DNA from: Candidatus Bathyarchaeia archaeon
GTDB taxonomy: Archaea; Thermoproteota; Bathyarchaeia; Bathyarchaeales; Bathycorpusculaceae
Length of the DNA: 64,000 nucleotides
Reading direction: 5' to 3'
NCBI GenBank assembly: GCA_049512075.1
Contig: JBEKXL010000014.1
Coordinates: 1 to 64,000 of the forward strand
Both the position numbers and the translations under genes were made by a program. Below the pieces are notes generated by a model. The model saw nothing but the letters and a program-made list of their open reading frames with translations. It did no database searches and had not been told where the DNA came from. Below, piece by piece: positions 9,682-19,909 of this stretch (positions within the stretch are counted from its first letter, which is position 1; each line of letters opens with the position of its first letter).

Positions 9682-10146
9682 CTAGAACTGTTGGAGTACG
9701 TCTTTTTTTTCTATTATGTTGCCGCAGTAGTGGCACTTTAGTAGCAGAGGGTCTTCGGATTCGATGTAGAACTTGGGTTTTACGGGTTCGTTGCTGTTGC
9801 TTATGCAGGCGGGGTTGGCGCATTTAACGATGTTTTCGATGGTTTTTGGCAGTTTGACTTCCTGTTTCTTTATGACTTTGTAGTTGCGGATTATGTTGAT
9901 TGTGGCGTGTGGGGCGATGAGGGCTATTTTGTGCACTTCTTGGGGGTTGAGTTCTCTGCCCTCGATTTTGAGGATGTCTTTCGTCCTGAACCGTTTGCTG
10001 GGCACGTTGATGGCGATGGTTATGGGCCCTTTCTCGCGGCCCGTTATTCCGAGGATTTTGACCACGTCCAGGGCGTGGCCGCCCGTGATGTGATCTATGA
10101 CGGTGCCGTCTCTGATTTTGGAAACGCGCAGCTCTGTTTCGCTCAA
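9682..10146 (-). CDS. pyrI: Aspartate carbamoyltransferase regulatory chain
   Basis: LRVSKIRDGTVIDHI...KDILKIE...CANPACI...CHYC. True start is TTG 10146; the ORF-track extension to 11070 is antisense to pyrB. Confidence 0.95.
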   Translation of the reverse strand: MSETELRVSKIRDGTVIDHITGGHALDVVKILGITGREKGPITIAINVPSKRFRTKDILKIEGRELNPQEVHKIALIAPHATINIIRNYKVIKKQEVKLPKTIENIVKCANPACISNSNEPVKPKFYIESEDPLLLKCHYCGNIIEKKDVLQQF

Positions 10147-10251
10147 GCCTGTTTCTCCCTCTGAGAGGTGGTTTATTGTTGGAACGCGAATAAAAGACTT
10201 TAATTTTTGCTGTTGCCGCGAGGTCTTGTGCTGTTGGCAAGAGTTATCTAG

Positions 10252-11202
<951 letters not shown>

Positions 11203-11278
11203 CCCGCGGATATGGCTGCAAAATCCTGCAGAAGACAGGAAAAGCACGAGTTTGTGTGGAGTGGGCGTGTGCTGCTGT

Positions 11279-13477
11279 TTAGGTTTCGTTGGAGCGGTCG
11301 AAGTAGGTGAGTGTGCTGACGGCGTTGCATTTGGGGCATTTGCTTGTTTGGCCGGGCCAGGTTTTTTTGCAGTTTGTGCAGTAGGTTGTTTTGCGGTTGT
11401 AGGTGAAGAATTCTGGGTTGTTGTTTTCTATTAGTTGTTTGGTTATGGAGAGGAGCTGTTCTGGTTCGTGTGTTGTTTCGTCGAGTTCGATTATGGTTAG
11501 GTTTCCGCCTGTCTGGGTCTGTCTTGTTTTGTGTTGTGGGGTTTGGGGTTTTTTGGGGAGGTTGCCGTTTTGGAGGGTGAGTTTGTCTGTTGTGGAGTAG
11601 TGGGGTTTGTCTCTTGTTCCTGTGAAGTGGACTTTTGCGATTCCGTATCTTTCGATGTCGATTTGTGCCAGTCTGGTGGAGGCTTCGGGGTTTGGCATTG
11701 TTGCTGGGTAGACGTGTTTTCCGCGTTTTTTTCCGATTTTGTTTATGAAGCTTGTGATGTTCTGTGCGGTTTCTTCGGCGAAGGTTTGGGTTTTTTCGTC
11801 GTTGATGCTTTTGTCGGTGAAGGCTTCTGCTGCTTCTGTTAGTCCTGCGAGGTTTATGGTGTGTATGGTTTTTTCGAGTCTGAAGTACTGGTCGCCGTTG
11901 TTTTCTTGTGTGAGGAAGGGGAGCAGGTTTTTGGCGTGTTGTCTGAGGGCTTGGTGTTTGATGTCTAGGGCGCGGTTTGCCATTTCGAGTCTTTCCTTGA
12001 GGGTTTCGAGGAATTTTGCGGGGTCTTTTTCGGTTTCGTAGGCGACGCGGGGCACGTTTACTGTTACGGTGCCCAGGCATCCTGTGCGGAGGGTGTCGAT
12101 TTCCCAGTCGCCGTTTGGTTCTGCGTCGATTTTGAATCCGGAGGGGCTGTGGACGGTTTGTTCGTGGTTTTTTTCGGTTAGGTTTGCGAAGTAGGGTGTG
12201 CCGTTGTGTGCTGCGAGTGCGTGGGCTTTGAGGAGGATGGCTCTTGCTGTTTCGTCTTTGAGTGTTTCTGGGCGTATTTTGACTGTGAGTTTGGGGTTGG
12301 CCAGCGGTTTTTGGAGGCTTTCTTCAGCGAATGCTTCGAGGAGCAGTGATGCTAGCTGCTGCGCTTCTTCCGCGTAGTCTGCGTATTTGCCGGCTTGTTC
12401 GCCGTTGGGTCCGGTGGCAGGTTTGTCAGCTAGATGTTTGGGTGTTGTGAGTTCTAGGTTTATGGCGGTGTCTGTGTGTTGGCTTAGGTTTGTTATGAAC
12501 TGGTGGAGTGCTTCTTTGGTTCTTGTGGGTTCGGTGTTTTTTGTGTATGGGGCGAGGAAGGTGTTGAGGTATTCGAGTGTTTGGGTTGTTTCTGTTTCTT
12601 TTGCTGCGTGTAGGAGGGCGTTGAATATGGTTGTGAGTGCTGTTTCTAGGTTTTTGGGTGGGGGTTGGTTGGGTTGGGTGGGGTTGATGGTTTCTAGGTT
12701 TAGGCCGTTTTGTAGGAAGAATCGTGTGTCGTGTATGGTTTCTGTGGGTTTGAGGATCCATGTGCTGAGGTTGTTGATGTGGAGGGTGCCTGAGAGGTGG
12801 GCGTCTGCGATGTCTCTTGGCAGTGTGTTGAGTAGTGTGTATTCTTTGAAGACTGTTTGTCCTGCGGCTTCGAGGGGGTTTGTTGTTTGTGGTGTTGTGT
12901 GGAGGAGGTTGGTGACGTCGTGGACGGGTATTCCTAGGCGTGTGAGCTTGTTGCGGTATTCTTCGAGGCCTTTTTCGATGAGGATGGCGTTTACTACTTC
13001 TCTTACGAGTGGGGCTGTTAGGTATTTGGTTTTGGATTTGAGGAGTTGGGTTTCGGCTTCTTTGGCTACTTTTTGTGCTTGTTCGGGGGGCATTTTGGCT
13101 TCTTTTATTAGTGCGTTTGCGATTTTGTTGGGGTCGAATTCTTCTATTGCTGATCTGCTTGCGCGGATGAGTATGTTTTTGGGTTTGTTGGCTTTTTTGT
13201 CTATTCTGTTGGCGACGTCGATGACCATTTTGCCGAGGTCGGTTAGGCCGTATTTTTTTTGGTCCACTAGGGCTTCGATGAGGTCTGCTTTGAGTAGGAA
13301 TTTTAGGTGGTAGGCGAAGCGTCCTGCGTCTCGGCTTGGGTTCATTTTCAGGCTGCTCATGAGTTCTGTGTAGCTGAGGGGGCCTTTGTCGAAGAGTAGG
13401 TTGAGTATTTGCAGTCTGAGGGGTGAGCTGACGGCTTTGAGGATTTTGATTCCGTGGGTGCGGCTGGCTGTTGACAA
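11279..13477 (-). CDS. ArsR-type wHTH + ATP-cone + class III ribonucleotide reductase (NrdD)-like protein, apparently catalytically dead
   Basis: N-terminal SSPLRLQIL...FAYHLKFL wHTH; IRASRSAIEEFDPNKI ATP-cone; NrdD-like ADAHLSGTLHI, FLAPY, GTPYF, TVNVPR and CxxC...CPxC Zn site. Ends FDRSNET without the glycyl-radical RxxGY. Confidence 0.85.
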   Translation of the reverse strand: MSTASRTHGIKILKAVSSPLRLQILNLLFDKGPLSYTELMSSLKMNPSRDAGRFAYHLKFLLKADLIEALVDQKKYGLTDLGKMVIDVANRIDKKANKPKNILIRASRSAIEEFDPNKIANALIKEAKMPPEQAQKVAKEAETQLLKSKTKYLTAPLVREVVNAILIEKGLEEYRNKLTRLGIPVHDVTNLLHTTPQTTNPLEAAGQTVFKEYTLLNTLPRDIADAHLSGTLHINNLSTWILKPTETIHDTRFFLQNGLNLETINPTQPNQPPPKNLETALTTIFNALLHAAKETETTQTLEYLNTFLAPYTKNTEPTRTKEALHQFITNLSQHTDTAINLELTTPKHLADKPATGPNGEQAGKYADYAEEAQQLASLLLEAFAEESLQKPLANPKLTVKIRPETLKDETARAILLKAHALAAHNGTPYFANLTEKNHEQTVHSPSGFKIDAEPNGDWEIDTLRTGCLGTVTVNVPRVAYETEKDPAKFLETLKERLEMANRALDIKHQALRQHAKNLLPFLTQENNGDQYFRLEKTIHTINLAGLTEAAEAFTDKSINDEKTQTFAEETAQNITSFINKIGKKRGKHVYPATMPNPEASTRLAQIDIERYGIAKVHFTGTRDKPHYSTTDKLTLQNGNLPKKPQTPQHKTRQTQTGGNLTIIELDETTHEPEQLLSITKQLIENNNPEFFTYNRKTTYCTNCKKTWPGQTSKCPKCNAVSTLTYFDRSNET

Positions 13478-13598
13478 GGTTGTTTGTGGGCCTCTTCTTT
13501 TTGTGGGGGTGTAGTATTTTTGGGTGTGGGGGGTTTAAAGGTGTTGGGATAGGCTTATTTTGCTGTTTTGAAGATAGGATGGGTATGCGCGTGTGGGC

Positions 13599-13676
13599 GG
13601 GGCTGTCGGCTAGTTTGGTCTAGGCTTGTAGCCTCGGGCGCTATAGACCCCGGTTCAAATCCGGGCAGCCCCACCA
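13599..13676 (+). tRNA. tRNA-Pro (CGG), encoded CCA
   Basis: GGGGCTG...GTAGC CT CGG GC GCTAT...GGTTCAAATCC...CAGCCCCACCA. Confidence 0.96.
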
Positions 13677-13825
13677 TAGTTTGGGTTGGAGAGCCGTTGC
13701 TGCGCTTCCTGAACGACGTGAGAGAAAGTGTTGTGTTTTTCTTTTTTTGGAGAAGGGTGTTTTGGGCTTCTTTTCAGTGGCAAGGTTTAAGTCATGGGTT
13801 GTCCACGTCTGGGTTCGGCGTGTTC

Positions 13826-13905
13826 AGGCGTGATTCGTATGGGAAAGGCTTGAATCGTATGGGAAAGGTGTGAATCGTATGGGAAAGGCGTGAATGTATG
13901 GGAGG
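13826..13905 (+). repeat. Tandem 20-bp repeat (TGAATCGTATGGGAAAGGCG), about 3.7 copies
   Basis: Units start at 13831, 13851 and 13871, with a degenerate fourth at 13891; no spacers. Confidence 0.9.
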
Positions 13906-13916
13906 GGTGTGGTTCG

Positions 13917-14219
13917 TTGCCGTTGACTGAGTCTGTGTTCTTTAAAGCGGTGTTGCAGAGGGAAAACCGAATTCAGGTTCCCAGGTTGTTTCGTTGGCAG
14001 TACAAGATGGAGGCGTGTGAGGTGTTGAGGGTCAGTGTTCGGGTTGAGGGTGGTTTCGTGGATGAGGGGTTTCTTGCGAGGATGACGAAGGATGGTCGCT
14101 TGACTGTTCCGAAGTTGACTTTGAAGCTTCTGCGGGAGGGCGAAGAAAAAAGTTTGGAAGGCTGCGTCCTCGAAGTCACGGTTGAGCCGGCGGACGAGCA
14201 GGTGAAGAGCCGGGGCTGA
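13917..14219 (+). CDS. Tandem AbrB/SpoVT-like (swapped-hairpin) DNA-binding protein
   Basis: Two modules: FKAVLQRENRIQVPRLFR and FLARMTKDGRLTVPKL. Start is likely TTG (MPLTE). Confidence 0.7.
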   Translation: MPLTESVFFKAVLQRENRIQVPRLFRWQYKMEACEVLRVSVRVEGGFVDEGFLARMTKDGRLTVPKLTLKLLREGEEKSLEGCVLEVTVEPADEQVKSRG

Positions 14220-16903: not shown

Positions 16904-17145
16904 GACCAGAAACCCACAGCCCTCTCATCATGCTAACAGACAGTCTGGGATTCTGGTCTTAGCGCGCGCGAGTCTTGTGGATTGCCCCACGGCGCTGGAT
17001 TATTGCTCGGATCATGCAACTTCTAGAGTTTTTGTGTGGGCGTTTGAGCGGGCGTGCTGGCGGTTTGGGACGGAATATTTGGCTGGGATATATCTGGATG
17101 TTAACAAGTGTTATATGTTGTTTTGATGGACATGCATGATGAGGT

Positions 17146-17358
17146 TTGTTGGCTGTGCGTAGAGACTTGCGCATACGGAATCGACCTGTCCTCTTGCTGC
17201 TTCTGCCCGTTGTACTGGTTTTCTGGATGGTCGGCTGGGTTCTCTATTACACGGGTTCTGAGGGTGGCCGGCACAGAGCGGTATCTGATACTGTCAGGGA
17301 TGACGGGGTGGAGGTTGGCGTCGTGCTGCTGGAAGAAGAGACTGAGGTTAACAGCTAG
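17146..17358 (+). CDS. Small single-TM hypothetical protein
   Basis: RNRPVLLLLLPVVLVFWMVGWVLYYTG hydrophobic stretch, acidic tail, GAGG upstream. Confidence 0.55.
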   Translation: MLAVRRDLRIRNRPVLLLLLPVVLVFWMVGWVLYYTGSEGGRHRAVSDTVRDDGVEVGVVLLEEETEVNS

Positions 17359-17557
17359 TCTCGACGATTCTTGGATTCATGTGGCGCATGCGCTACGTTG
17401 CCCTGGGTGCTGAGCGCGCTCGCTGTGTTGAGAAGGCCGTGTCATAGCGCTTTTGGTGTTGCAAGGGTTGGGGTTTGTTGGTTCTGTTTCTTGGTTATCA
17501 ATTTTGGGTTCTTGGGGTTTAAGGTTTGAATGTGTTTGGTTTTTTTTGGAGTTGGGG

Positions 17558-18478
17558 TTATCTGGTTTTTTGGTTGCGTTTTGGTTTTATCGTTATGAGG
17601 TAGATTGTTGTGATTGCTAGGGCGATTGTTATGATGATTAGGATGTAGTTGAGGTTTCTGCTGAAGTCGAGTTGTCCTATTATGGAGTTGTAGTTTGTGA
17701 GTTGGCCGGCGTAGCTTGAGTTGAGTAGGTTGTAGTCTTGCATGAGGGTGGCGTAGCTGGTGTTTAGGGTTTGGAAGTTTGTTTGGAGGCCGTTGAAGCT
17801 TGATGAGAGCGAGACGAAGGCGGTTGTTAGGTTGCCGTAGTTGGTTGAGAGGAGGTTGTAGTTGGCTGAGAGCGAGTTGTAGTTGGTGTTCAGCACGTTG
17901 TACTGGGAGATCAGCGTGTTGAAGTTTAATGTGTCGTTGTTGTGTTCGGCCAAGAGTGTCGTGTAGTTTGCGGACAATTCGTTGAAGTCGGCCAGTAGTT
18001 GCGTGTAGTTGCCGAGGATGTTGGTGTAGTTGGCCAATAACGAGTTGTATGTGTCGTTCAGGGCGAGGTACTCGGGGGATGGGACGAATTCTGTGATGGT
18101 GAAGGTGAAGTAAAAGGTTACTTGGCCATAGGGAACGACGTTTGAGTCGACTCGGATGGTGTGGTTTCCTTTGTCGGAGGATGGTGGTTCGGTTGGGACG
18201 GTTATGTTGTAGTTCTCGGACGTGCCGCTTGCTCCGGGGACACCTTGCTGGTTTAGACCTATTGTGATGTTGTCCCAGAAGATATCGGCTGACTGCACAT
18301 TCTGCACGCTGGCATTCAGCGAGGTGAATCTGAGAAGGATTGTTGTGTTGGCTCCTCCTTGTGCTGGAAGTATTTCCGCCTGAATCTGGTCGGCTTGCGC
18401 GTTTACGTGAACCACTGTTACGAACGTTAGAGATAGTACGAGGAGGGCTGGGAGCAAGATTTTCCACGGTTTGATCAT
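17558..18478 (-). CDS. Secreted Ig-like + heptad coiled-coil + C-terminal TM protein (stalk-like)
   Basis: Signal peptide; beta-rich domain; repeated Y/F-N-x-L-x-x-N heptads; TM helix followed by KPKRNQKTR. Confidence 0.8.
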   Translation of the reverse strand: MIKPWKILLPALLVLSLTFVTVVHVNAQADQIQAEILPAQGGANTTILLRFTSLNASVQNVQSADIFWDNITIGLNQQGVPGASGTSENYNITVPTEPPSSDKGNHTIRVDSNVVPYGQVTFYFTFTITEFVPSPEYLALNDTYNSLLANYTNILGNYTQLLADFNELSANYTTLLAEHNNDTLNFNTLISQYNVLNTNYNSLSANYNLLSTNYGNLTTAFVSLSSSFNGLQTNFQTLNTSYATLMQDYNLLNSSYAGQLTNYNSIIGQLDFSRNLNYILIIITIALAITTIYLITIKPKRNQKTR

Positions 18479-18640
18479 GATTGTCCACATCGCTTTGAGC
18501 GCACGCGCTTGATAGTTCATGTATCGTTTGAAGCTGTAGTTAAAGGCTTTGCCTTGTTTAGGTTTCATCTATTAATGCCCGTTACTGGTTGGGACAAAAT
18601 CGGGTTTATGTGGTTTTGTTGTGGGGTGGTCGAGTGCGGG

Positions 18641-19314
18641 TTAGGTTTCGTTGTAGCGGTCGAAGTGGATGAGTGTGCTGATGGCGTTGCATTGTGGGCA
18701 TTTGGTTTTTGTGGTTGGCCAGGTTTTTTTGCAGTTTGTGCAGTAGGTTGTTTTTTGGTTGTAGATGAATAGTTGCGGTTCGTGTGTTTCGAGTAGTTGT
18801 TTTGTGGTTTGCAGGAGTTGTTCGGCTGTGGGTGTGGTTTCGTTGAGTTCGATTATGTTTAGGTTTCCTAAGGGTTGGGGTGGAGTGGTTTGTTGGGGTT
18901 GTGGTGTGTTGAGGTTTTGGAGTGTGAGCGTGTTTGTTGTGGTGTAGTGGCGTTTGTCTCGGGTGCCTGCGTAGCGGATTTTGGCGATGCCGTATCTTTA
19001 TATGTCTAGCCGTGCTAGTCTGGTTGTGGCTTCGGGGTTTGGGAGTGTTGCGGTTTGGAGGTGTTTTCCGCGTTTTCTGCTCATTTTGTTGATGATGTTG
19101 TTGATTTCGTTGATGGTTTCTGTTTGGAAGGTTTGGGCTTCCGGGGTGTCGAGGGTTTTGCCTGTGAAGGCTTCTGTGGCTTCTTTGAGTCCTGCGAGGT
19201 TTATGGCATGGGCGGCGTTTTCGAGTCTGTAGTATTCATCGCCGTTGCTGCTTTGGGTGAGGAATGGGAGGAGGCTTTTGGCGTGCTGTCTGAGGGTTTG
19301 ATGTTTGATTTCTA
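18641..19314 (-). pseudogene. 5'-truncated diverged paralog of the HTH-NrdD-like gene (C-terminal third) with an internal TAA
   Basis: Translates LEIKHQTLRQHAKSLLPFL...LDI*RYGIAK...CTNCKK...CPQCNAISTLIHFDRYNET*. GAA is replaced by TAA at 18998-19000. Confidence 0.85.
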
Positions 19315-19487
19315 GAAACTCAAGCTATTCCGGCCTAGAGTCAAACTATAAGGCTGTTGTTGGCCAATTGGACTTCACCAGAAATCTCAGCTACGTCTTC
19401 ATCACATCAACGATTGTCTTAGCAGTCTCGACCGTCTACTTCGCAATATATAGAGAACCAAAACCAGCTTCGAAAACAAGATACTAG
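19315..19487 (+). pseudogene. 3' fragment of a paralog of the coiled-coil stalk gene (17558-18478), inverted
   Basis: NSSYSGLESNYKAVVGQLDFTRNLSYVFI...KTRY aligns to NSSYAGQLTNYNSIIGQLDFSRNLNYILI...KTR. Fused to the nrdD fragment at TCTAGA (about 19311-19316). Confidence 0.75.
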
Positions 19488-19909
19488 CCTTGCCAAATCG
19501 AATTGCGCTCAACGTTTGCTGCTCAAGCTCTCGAACCCGTTATTATCTCAGGGCTGATGATGTTTCTGGCAACACTTAGAACGCGTGCTCTGATGTGGGT
19601 TTCAGTTCCTTGTTTTGGTGTTTAATTCATGGTTTTTTTATGATTTCACGACGGGTGGGTTCTGCCCGGACGGTTGGTTTTGTTTGTTGGTTTTCCGTGT
19701 TGTTTTCTTTGTTTTTGGTTTGCTTAGTGTTCTAGAATGGGCGGAGTTTTGTTCTAGAAAACTTTCATAGATGTCTTGTGGAATATTGTTTAAATATTGG
19801 TTTTTCGACGGTTGTTGTCGTGTGAATGGGGGAAGTGTGGGTTGAGGCTGGCCAGTGTGGGTTTGATGTTGGTTGTTCTTGTCTGCTCCTGTCAGGGAGG
19901 GATTGGTTA

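Follow-up and report, generated by a model that had tools for sequence, protein, structure and literature searches.

A winged-helix protein built on a class III ribonucleotide reductase fold that lacks the radical residues, a candidate regulator of nucleotide-supply genes in Bathyarchaeia

The window analyzed here is a stretch of 64,000 nucleotides from a Candidatus Bathyarchaeia archaeon (assembly GCA_049512075.1, contig JBEKXL010000014.1, positions 1–64,000). A minus-strand gene at 11279–13477 encodes a 732-aa protein that joins an ArsR-like winged helix-turn-helix (wHTH) and a degenerate ATP-cone to the barrel and zinc ribbon of NrdD, the class III ribonucleotide reductase (RNR). The residues of the glycyl-radical chemistry have been lost. 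The protein is probably a non-catalytic descendant of class III RNR that now acts as a transcription factor for nucleotide-supply genes, a reading given a probability of about 0.55. Much of this had been proposed in an original prediction made from the letters of the DNA alone, without database searches. The gene and its parts are as follows.

11279–13477, minus strand: whole gene, encoding a 732-aa protein with wHTH, degenerate ATP-cone, NrdD-like barrel and zinc ribbon; TTG start codon, TAA stop codon at 11279–11281.
13217–13441, minus strand: ArsR-like wHTH, residues 13–87 (Pfam DUF7347 and HTH_5).
12956–13162, minus strand: degenerate ATP-cone, residues 106–174, with the hairpin L-I-R-A-S-R against the canonical V-x-K-R-D/S-G.
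11306–12865, minus strand: NrdD-like alpha/beta barrel and zinc ribbon, residues 205–724 (Pfam NRDD, positions 16–534 of 562).
12770–12784, minus strand: LHINN, residues 232–236, the relic of the HxHD motif by profile alignment to solved NrdDs.
12128–12151, minus strand: HSPSGFKI, residues 443–450, the relic of the finger loop by alignment with true NrdDs.
11327–11380, minus strand: Cys4 zinc ribbon (C700, C703, C714 and C717).
11282–11302, minus strand: C-terminal FDRSNET, residues 726–732, which aligns with YSR(I/V)xGY.

Every domain named in the original prediction was recovered with Pfam, and the zinc site was placed at cysteines 700, 703, 714 and 717. HTH_5 matches residues 18–68 (30.1 bits, cut-off 22), DUF7347 matches 13–87, and the ATP-cone profile matches 106–174 (34.6 bits, cut-off 25.8). 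The N-terminal 75 residues also match HTH_20, and the first 80 positions of the family profile match the solved winged helices of HlyU/ArsR proteins 3jth, 5znx and 1y0u (E 1.6e-4 to 5.8e-4). The NRDD match spans residues 205–724 (E 6e-70) and profile positions 16–534 of 562; the last ~28 profile positions, which bear the glycyl-radical loop, are therefore missing. The protein scores 245.1 bits with the NCBI equivalog model for NrdD, TIGR02487, under the curated cut-off of 326.35. A structure predicted with AlphaFold2 from 51 family members has a mean predicted local distance difference test (pLDDT) value of 87.7 and a predicted template modeling score of 0.78. The top Foldseek matches of this model are all class III RNRs (9d3x, 8p2s, 4coj and 1h79; E 1e-26 to 1e-18), with template modeling scores, normalized by target length, of 0.6–0.74.

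Catalytic positions were compared in an alignment of 110 sequences, comprising the window protein, the true NrdD of the same genome, 8 close homologs and, from 150 listed representatives, the 100 with lengths of 560–830 aa. The eight true NrdDs in it carry [GC]-C-R on the finger loop and SR(I/V)xGY near the C-terminus. In the window protein Glu731 occupies the position of the radical glycine and the chain ends one residue later, at T732, which bears out the claim that FDRSNET stands where class III RNRs have RxxGY. S-G447-F448-K449 aligns with M-G-C-R and places Phe at the thiyl-cysteine position; the earlier reading of HSPSGFKI as the replacement for a CR or CCR motif was thus correct. HMMER profile alignments to the NrdDs of T4, T. 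maritima and P. copri concur on the catalytic positions. The proposed comparison with T4 and Thermotoga NrdD and with a structure model gives the same picture of a class III fold from which the catalytic Gly and Cys are missing.

Other parts of the active site have also gone. In the available text of a study of P. copri NrdD (PMC11226230), the further essentials are given as a second cysteine, Cys171, on the first strand, an HxHD motif that holds the triphosphate of the substrate, and an NxN flap that covers the substrate. The second active-site cysteine corresponds to T247/I248 of the window protein in a profile alignment to 8p23, and no Cys occurs at either position in the close set of 121 sequences (the window protein and 120 listed relatives). 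HxHD reads H-I-N-N. The (K/R)ENAN flap of the nearest true NrdDs has no counterpart in the linker at residues 185–205. Without a glycyl loop, thiyl cysteine, second cysteine or NxN flap, the window protein cannot be an RNR of the glycyl-radical type. It clearly descends from NrdD but shows none of the catalytic features by which that enzyme is recognized.

The same losses run through the family and were further scored in a broad set of 51 sequences. At the thiyl position (448) the close set has F in 90 proteins, L in 14, C in 12 and other residues in 5; the broad set has Cys in 0 of 51. The glycine position holds L in 52, E in 21, G in 14, S in 10, a gap in 10 and other residues in 14 of the 121, and 119 of the 121 proteins terminate at or before the residue after it. 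The catalytic positions thus drift across the family rather than being uniformly lost, and the expectation that homologs would consistently lack Gly and Cys holds for most of them, with Gly retained in 14 of 121 and Cys in 12 of 121. The triphosphate motif is HIHG in 39, HINN in 19 and HING in 19 of the close set, and the first His of HxHD is retained in 40 of the 51. Deeper members have a longer C-terminal tail with a recognizable old glycyl-radical domain in which the Gly is replaced (e.g., YSRSLAKYLPL). The Cys4 ribbon is intact in the window protein and invariant in both sets (51 of 51 and 121 of 121), and the barrel motifs DAHxxGxIH, PPKxL and FLAPY, common with true NrdDs, persist.

The family is large and archaeal. 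Of 8000 candidates scored in a word-indexed search, 2005 proteins had E ≤ 1e-5. The best 120 of the 2005 are 60–100% identical to the window protein and 680–800 aa long; all have PF13597, and most also have PF24038 and/or PF01022. Relatives are annotated at source as "anaerobic ribonucleoside-triphosphate reductase" or "ArsR family transcriptional regulator." Full-length orthologs of 95–99% identity are present on other contigs. In an exhaustive search, 1792 cluster representatives matched at E ≤ 0.001, of which 341 reached E ≤ 1e-30, and many of the matches cover the query from the first dozen residues at only 27–45% identity. The architecture of wHTH, cone and NrdD-like barrel occurs in hundreds of archaeal genomes, with named members in Bathyarchaeia, Nitrososphaerota and Thorarchaeota. 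In a protein atlas, clusters with DUF7347, ATP-cone and NRDD come from Bathyarchaeota, Nitrososphaerota and Promethearchaeota; the atlas also lists HTH/DUF7347 clusters in Thermoproteota and a Nanobdellota cluster with a wHTH (HTH_24, HTH_5) and NRDD, and every one of these clusters is archaeal. The window protein matches an unnamed archaeal DUF7347/ATP-cone/NRDD group of the same domain order, about 640–780 aa in length, in which the radical motifs are absent.

Invariant columns of the broad alignment fall in the winged helix, the cone, the linker and the zinc Cys4, and the mid-barrel is least conserved. The recognition-helix segment RDAG[KR]FAYHL[KR] is near-invariant. The ratio of nonsynonymous to synonymous change (dN/dS) is 0.28 (0.09/0.318) against the ortholog of locus L022 and 0.18 (0.184/1.04) against that of L023, which indicates that the gene is under purifying selection despite its bizarre composition.

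In a quick FastTree phylogeny of 111 rows, the wHTH forms make one clade of 90–91 rows with SH-like support of 97–99, nested among true NrdDs, and the window protein falls within it. The automatic "HTH" label counted any filled N-terminal columns and was corrected by Pfam scans of 20 basal sequences. Twelve of these 20 basal proteins have one or more ATP-cones without a wHTH and a reduced NRDD score, with the match ending at 465–555 of 562. These cone-bearing NrdD-like proteins (P0183, P0190, P0201, P0203, P0214, P0229, P0231, P0232, P0248, P0252, P0260 and P0265) have NRDD scores of 214–339 bits against 442–571 for true NrdDs, and no G-C-R at the aligned finger loop. A thirteenth reduced-score protein, P0216, has no cone match, reaches the end of the profile, and lacks the Cys and Gly in the 110-sequence alignment. 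P0135 was rejected as a true NrdD, its "true" flag having arisen solely from a GCR two columns out of register.

Taken together, the alignments support an ancient and family-wide loss of catalysis. The original prediction had dated the loss from a diverged paralog fragment in the window that ends FDRYNET; that fragment is real and the loss is old, but its age is better shown by the family-wide pattern.

Gene context links the family to nucleotide metabolism. In the window the gene converges on pyrB, as was noted originally, across a gap of 76 bp, and TIGR00670 identifies the neighbor. Relatives are encoded by at least 580 stretches in the species genomes scanned, and the best 80, all from Bathyarchaeia or Bathyarchaeota, were examined. 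pyrB lies immediately downstream and convergent in 78 of the best 80 loci, with 10–138 bp between alignment ends; of the two exceptions, one is cut by a contig end and the other is rearranged. pyrI adjoins pyrB in only 36 of the 79 loci that possess pyrB.

A phylum-wide sample of 401 genomes was searched with a Nitrososphaerota-type member at E ≤ 1e-20, a threshold that may admit some sister-clade true NrdDs. Matches were found in 251 of the 401 genomes, including 56 of 56 in family f15. Among the 150 match rows listed, all but one begin at residue 13 of the query or earlier and so include the winged helix. Archaeal amoA is present in all five complete f15 genomes, which are for this reason taken as ammonia oxidizers; such organisms are aerobes. 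The family gene is the only NRDD-domain match in these five genomes, and none of the five has an NrdG above the cut-off (best 52 bits, cut-off 131). At 28 of 30 f15 loci an RNR with ATP-cone, Ribonuc_red_lgN and lgC domains (class II) lies 205–579 bp downstream on the same strand; no RNR stands beside the family gene at the remaining two. pyrB/pyrI and/or an RNR stand beside the gene in 11 of 16 regions picked from 14 other families, and two of the 16 (L140 and L141) have the family gene, pyrB/pyrI and RNR together.

A tandem arrangement suggests how the family arose. Locus L147 (4974–9571) holds the wHTH gene, 171 bp, a true NrdD gene (KENAN, HIHD, SQCCR and SRITGYY), and then a convergent pyrB. 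With TIGR02487 the true NrdD scores 520.6 bits and its wHTH neighbor 304.2. The wHTH gene is also directly upstream of a true sister-clade nrdD in 4 of 5 further genomes (L148–L151 among them), all chosen because of two matches each, so that a true nrdD lies directly downstream in 5 of the 6 Bathyarchaeia genomes examined for the tandem. This suggests that the family originated by tandem duplication of nrdD, and it would explain the pyrB adjacency in the window as the remainder after nrdD loss. Across many lineages the gene for the relative either directly precedes a class II or class III RNR gene or converges on pyrB/pyrI, and the link to nucleotide metabolism is now much stronger than the original prediction could show.

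The genome has other RNRs, as the original prediction had asked to be checked. The assembly is 99.8% complete with 4.2% contamination. Contig C40 encodes a true NrdD (705 aa, SMCCRLR, SRVVGYLRP) followed by NrdG (184 bits, cut-off 131), the sole NrdG above the cut-off in the genome, and a canonical NrdR, with zinc ribbon and ATP-cone, is encoded directly upstream of the pair. Contig C3 encodes a class II NrdJ (TIGR02504, 735 bits, cut-off 400), preceded by a rubredoxin-like open reading frame (ORF) identified by eye. No NrdG-like match occurs on the contig of the window, in agreement with the earlier remark that no activase is nearby. A free-standing glycyl-radical cofactor protein was not found in the genome; its one Gly_radical match is a 792-aa pyruvate formate-lyase (PFL)-like enzyme. 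The bacterial-style nrdR-nrdD-nrdG cluster (C40:2288–5715) stands on a 6.7-kb contig together with an apparent major facilitator superfamily (MFS) transporter, GNAT acetyltransferase and integrase, all three identified by eye. The GC content of C40 is 48.8%, against 47.5% for the genome. This contig could be a horizontally acquired island or a contaminant.

A mechanism can be proposed for the transcription factor. The protein would dimerize through the old NrdD dimer interface, where the allosteric specificity site of real NrdDs is located, and in the dimer two winged helices would stand next to each other, in a position to recognize a palindromic operator. Nucleotide bound at a relic site (the specificity site, the degenerate cone or what is left of the triphosphate motif) would shift the winged helices and hence DNA binding. 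Targets would be RNR genes and pyrBI, the likeliest here being pyrB/pyrI, the rubredoxin-nrdJ unit and the gene's own promoter.

A model of the barrel as a homodimer (residues 196–690, two copies) is consistent with this. It is symmetric and has an ipSAE of 0.52 against 0.00 for the best control. Among proteins of solved structure, the mark for a pass was attained by 20 of 30 pairs and 1 of 23 single chains; the pass seen here may stem from likeness to solved class III RNR dimers. Runs agree in at least 92% of contacts with partner pLDDT of at least 79, and the modeled interface comprises residues 201–210, 238–242, 259–290, 326–334 and 386–393. The specificity site of true NrdDs is placed at the dimer interface in the available text of PMC11226230. 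In the window protein, by inference, relic nucleotide sites would govern how the two winged helices are placed with respect to each other.

A candidate operator was found in relatives. The box TGT[CTA]AA-N5-TTGA occurs in 23 of 28 ammonia-oxidizer intergenic regions and in 1.7% of shuffled sequences, and in 4 of 4 f4 loci of Bathyarchaeia nrdD is preceded by the sequence TGTCAATTT(T/C)(T)GA; the box-bearing sequences are kin to one another, so these counts are not independent. In 22 of the 23 regions the box is 89–101 nt upstream of the RNR start and in the other it is at −461, and that of locus L115 is a perfect GTGTCAA-N5-TTGACAC palindrome. TGTCAA-N5-TTGA is put forward as the candidate operator of these relatives. 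The upstream regions of the family gene and of pyrB are also strongly conserved, the family gene's own over 74 loci (..AAGTGTTCCCTAACACCTTTAAAC..) and that of pyrB over 75 loci (..AAAGTTATTTAG..). About 100 nt upstream of pyrB, one Bathyarchaeia subclade (L049, L056, L057, L059, L061, L063, L066 and others) has the conserved block ..TTATTAAAA(A/C)TGTGTTGCAGTCG(C/T)T(A/G)..CAACAACAAAAGCATATAAGC.., which holds an inverted repeat, e.g., GTTGTACAAC. This block may be part of a divergent gene's promoter or a regulatory site. Bacterial-type promoter and terminator matches at the junction of pyrB and the gene were discarded, being consensus matches only, to a bacterial consensus that is not applicable to archaea.

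Several results weigh against a nucleotide-sensing transcription factor. In the own and pyrB upstream regions (74 and 75 loci), no shared operator is separable from the transcription factor B recognition element (BRE) and TATA box or from the divergent tRNA-Pro promoter. The box of the ammonia oxidizers and f4 loci, searched in this genome with a loose pattern, gives 129 matches against 48–89 in shuffles, none at candidate promoters; the three candidate regions of this genome hold no box even with mismatches allowed, and a stricter pattern gives 1 irrelevant match. In five ammonia-oxidizer genomes the pattern is no commoner than a reversed control, and the strict box stands at the RNR promoter in only 2 of the 5, so a large regulon is not supported. 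The gene is convergent with pyrB here, neither co-transcribed nor divergent, and common ancestry may account in part for the synteny conserved across related genomes. The decayed triphosphate motif, HINN here and variable in the family, and the absence of the NxN flap also tell against nucleotide sensing.

The cone adds to these doubts. Its hairpin reads V-R-T-S-R in the family and L-I-R-A-S-R in the window protein, where canonical cones of the same genome have V-K/R-K-R-D/S-G. Nucleotide binding by the window cone appears doubtful, as the K-R-D/S-G hairpin is replaced by R-[AT]-S-R and the same degenerate, barrel-proximal cone occurs in the closest true NrdDs. Some of those true NrdDs have a canonical cone outside it, and the winged helix of the wHTH family stands where their outer cone would be. 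The degenerate cone is highly conserved within the wHTH family. Other lineages of dead NrdD have no wHTH but a second ATP-cone; the dead barrel may accordingly serve some purpose for which DNA binding is not required. The proposed analogy with NrdR has fared unevenly: context strengthens the link to nucleotide metabolism, and the idea of a stand-in for NrdR is weakened for this genome by the canonical NrdR beside nrdD-nrdG on C40. Three free-standing ATP-cone proteins (84–93-aa frames, ...KKRSG..FDK.K..) with no other in-frame domain were also seen in the genome, at C85:675–908, C15:9709–9942 and C34:13913–14131.

A fuller account of the family is offered tentatively, with the odds leaning against it as a whole. 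The family would regulate archaeal supply of deoxyribonucleoside triphosphates (dNTPs) and pyrimidines. It would read dNTPs at the relic specificity site and bind a GTGTCAA-N5-TTGACAC-type box at RNR promoters, with lineage variants at pyrBI. It would have been born by tandem duplication of nrdD and have outlived nrdD in aerobic ammonia oxidizers.

Four other explanations were weighed. The protein could be a transcription factor that senses redox, oxygen or metal, and no nucleotide signal, through the dead barrel, the Cys4 ribbon or ArsR-type sites, which would fit the anaerobic ancestry of NrdD. Its wHTH of ArsR/SmtB type, its Cys4 invariant in 121 of 121 sequences, and its degenerate cone and decayed substrate motifs favor such a signal. 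This is nevertheless unlikely: the recurring neighbors are RNR and pyrBI genes and not metal or redox genes, and with the metalloregulator subfamily model NF033788 the protein scores 28.1 bits, below the cut-off of 55. The Cys4 ribbon is equally invariant in true NrdDs, where the available text of PMC11226230 describes it as structural.

The protein could instead act at the protein level, as a regulator or scaffold of RNR or aspartate carbamoyltransferase with the winged helix as a protein-contact module. The radical-dead NrdD lineages that lack a wHTH but have a second ATP-cone suggest that the dead barrel has a value of its own, and the tight adjacency to RNR and pyrB fits physical partnership as well as regulation. 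Such a role is quite unlikely, as the wHTH is among the most conserved parts and its near-invariant recognition-helix segment is what would be expected for DNA reading; the ammonia oxidizers, moreover, have no other NRDD-domain match for it to pair with.

It is very unlikely that the protein is bifunctional, combining a new non-radical nucleotide chemistry with DNA binding. BirA and PutA are known enzyme-repressors that such a protein would resemble. In its favor, the barrel is well folded in the model (pLDDT mostly >85), the first His of HxHD is often kept, and several barrel motifs persist. Against it, the residues known to be required for ribonucleotide reduction are without exception missing or variable, the mid-barrel is least conserved, and no conserved new polar cluster was identified, conservation not having been mapped onto the model. 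A decaying pseudogene or an annotation artefact of an AC-rich stretch, for which third codon positions that are 95% A or C, a second, meaningless open frame of 293 aa and a broken paralog 5 kb away might speak, is refuted for practical purposes by the intact 732-codon frame with every domain recognized by Pfam, the 95–99% identical full-length orthologs, the confidently predicted fold and the dN/dS of 0.18–0.28.

Among known systems, the window protein is closest to NrdD (1h78 of T4, 4coi of T. maritima, 8p23 of P. copri and 9d3x of S. thermophilus), with which it shares the ten-stranded alpha/beta barrel fold and the Cys4 ribbon. One clade of true NrdDs has the same barrel-proximal cone and linker, and the predicted dimer would use the same side of the barrel as NrdD dimers. 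It differs from NrdD in the added winged helix and in the lack of the glycyl-radical loop, C-terminal tail, thiyl cysteine, second cysteine and NxN flap, and the family occurs in genomes that have no other NRDD-domain match and no NrdG above the cut-off.

NrdR has the same proposed job, as a regulator of nucleotide metabolism with an RNR-derived module, and relatives of the window protein are encoded beside RNR genes. NrdR is a protein of about 150 aa with an N-terminal DNA-binding zinc ribbon and a canonical ATP-cone, whereas the window protein has 732 aa, a winged helix, a degenerate cone and a whole barrel; there is no homology between them beyond the cone. Classical ArsR/SmtB proteins are metal-sensing and about 100 aa long, and here the wHTH is one domain of a 732-aa protein. 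MocR/GabR regulators combine a winged helix with an aminotransferase-like domain that binds ligand and is no longer a metabolic enzyme. The design logic is alike, an enzyme fold serving as a ligand-binding, dimerizing sensor; the fold and HTH family are unrelated, and the likeness is conceptual only.

All cells must control RNR expression, and bacteria use NrdR. The family is a third, widespread carrier of the ATP-cone, found beside RNR and pyrBI genes in several archaeal phyla, and its carriers include the environmentally dominant ammonia oxidizers and Bathyarchaeia. NrdR is described as rare in archaea in the available text of PMC9110341 and PMC12176259. If the proposed role is true, the family may supply the control over DNA precursors that had seemed to be missing from archaea, and it would clearly exemplify the reuse of an enzyme's allosteric apparatus as a sensor for transcription. 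Members are routinely annotated as "anaerobic ribonucleoside-triphosphate reductase," and metabolic reconstructions that follow this label would mistakenly assign a class III RNR to aerobes and other genomes. No description of a wHTH-fused or radical-dead NrdD was found in the available portions of the full-text literature, including RNR and NrdR papers, and supplementary tables of the RNRdb type might list such sequences.

The surroundings of the gene in the window hold the following features.

9682–10152, minus strand: pyrI, regulatory subunit of aspartate carbamoyltransferase (TIGR00240, 193 bits, cut-off 149), divergent from pyrB.
10252–11202, plus strand: pyrB, catalytic subunit of aspartate carbamoyltransferase (TIGR00670, 396 bits, cut-off 237), converging on the gene.
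13534–13539, minus strand: TTTAAA, TATA-box-like, 56 nt upstream of the start codon, in a promoter block conserved among Bathyarchaeia orthologs.
13599–13676, plus strand: tRNA-Pro(CGG), divergent from the gene; the 5′ end of the same tRNA lies upstream of many orthologs.
18644–19315, minus strand: pseudogene fragment of a second family copy, residues 504–732, 60% identical, with one in-frame TAA and the end FDRYNET.

From its position and conservation, TTTAAA is probably the promoter element of the gene. The pseudogene fragment lacks the N-terminal two thirds of the protein; its dN/dS is unreliable owing to the internal stop and was not used. It adjoins an ORF at 17558–18568 (minus strand), and a plus-strand ORF at 19305–19487 repeats the C-terminal motif of that ORF, ..GQLDF(S/T)RNL.Y.. 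The arrangement at 17558–19487 resembles a partial duplication, in inverted orientation, about the fragment. L022, the nearest relative, has its full-length family gene beside a homolog of the ORF at 17558–18568, not beside pyrB.

Strand asymmetry is extreme at 9700–14000 and 17000–19500 of the window, where the plus strand is G+T-rich whichever strand codes. Third codon positions are A 43%, C 52%, G 4.5% and T 0.5% in the minus-strand gene, and G 50%, T 33%, A 4% and C 13% in plus-strand pyrB. As a result of this skewed composition, T, N, Q, P, H and K are abundant in the protein, and the meaningless 293-aa frame stays open on the same strand as the gene. Only four regions so skewed occur in the 2.7-Mb assembly, the other two at C1:320001–322500 and C10:8001–11000. 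The skew fades among orthologs, being strong in L022, weaker in L023, and absent in L024 and L035, and it looks like the product of strand-specific C-to-T and A-to-G change.

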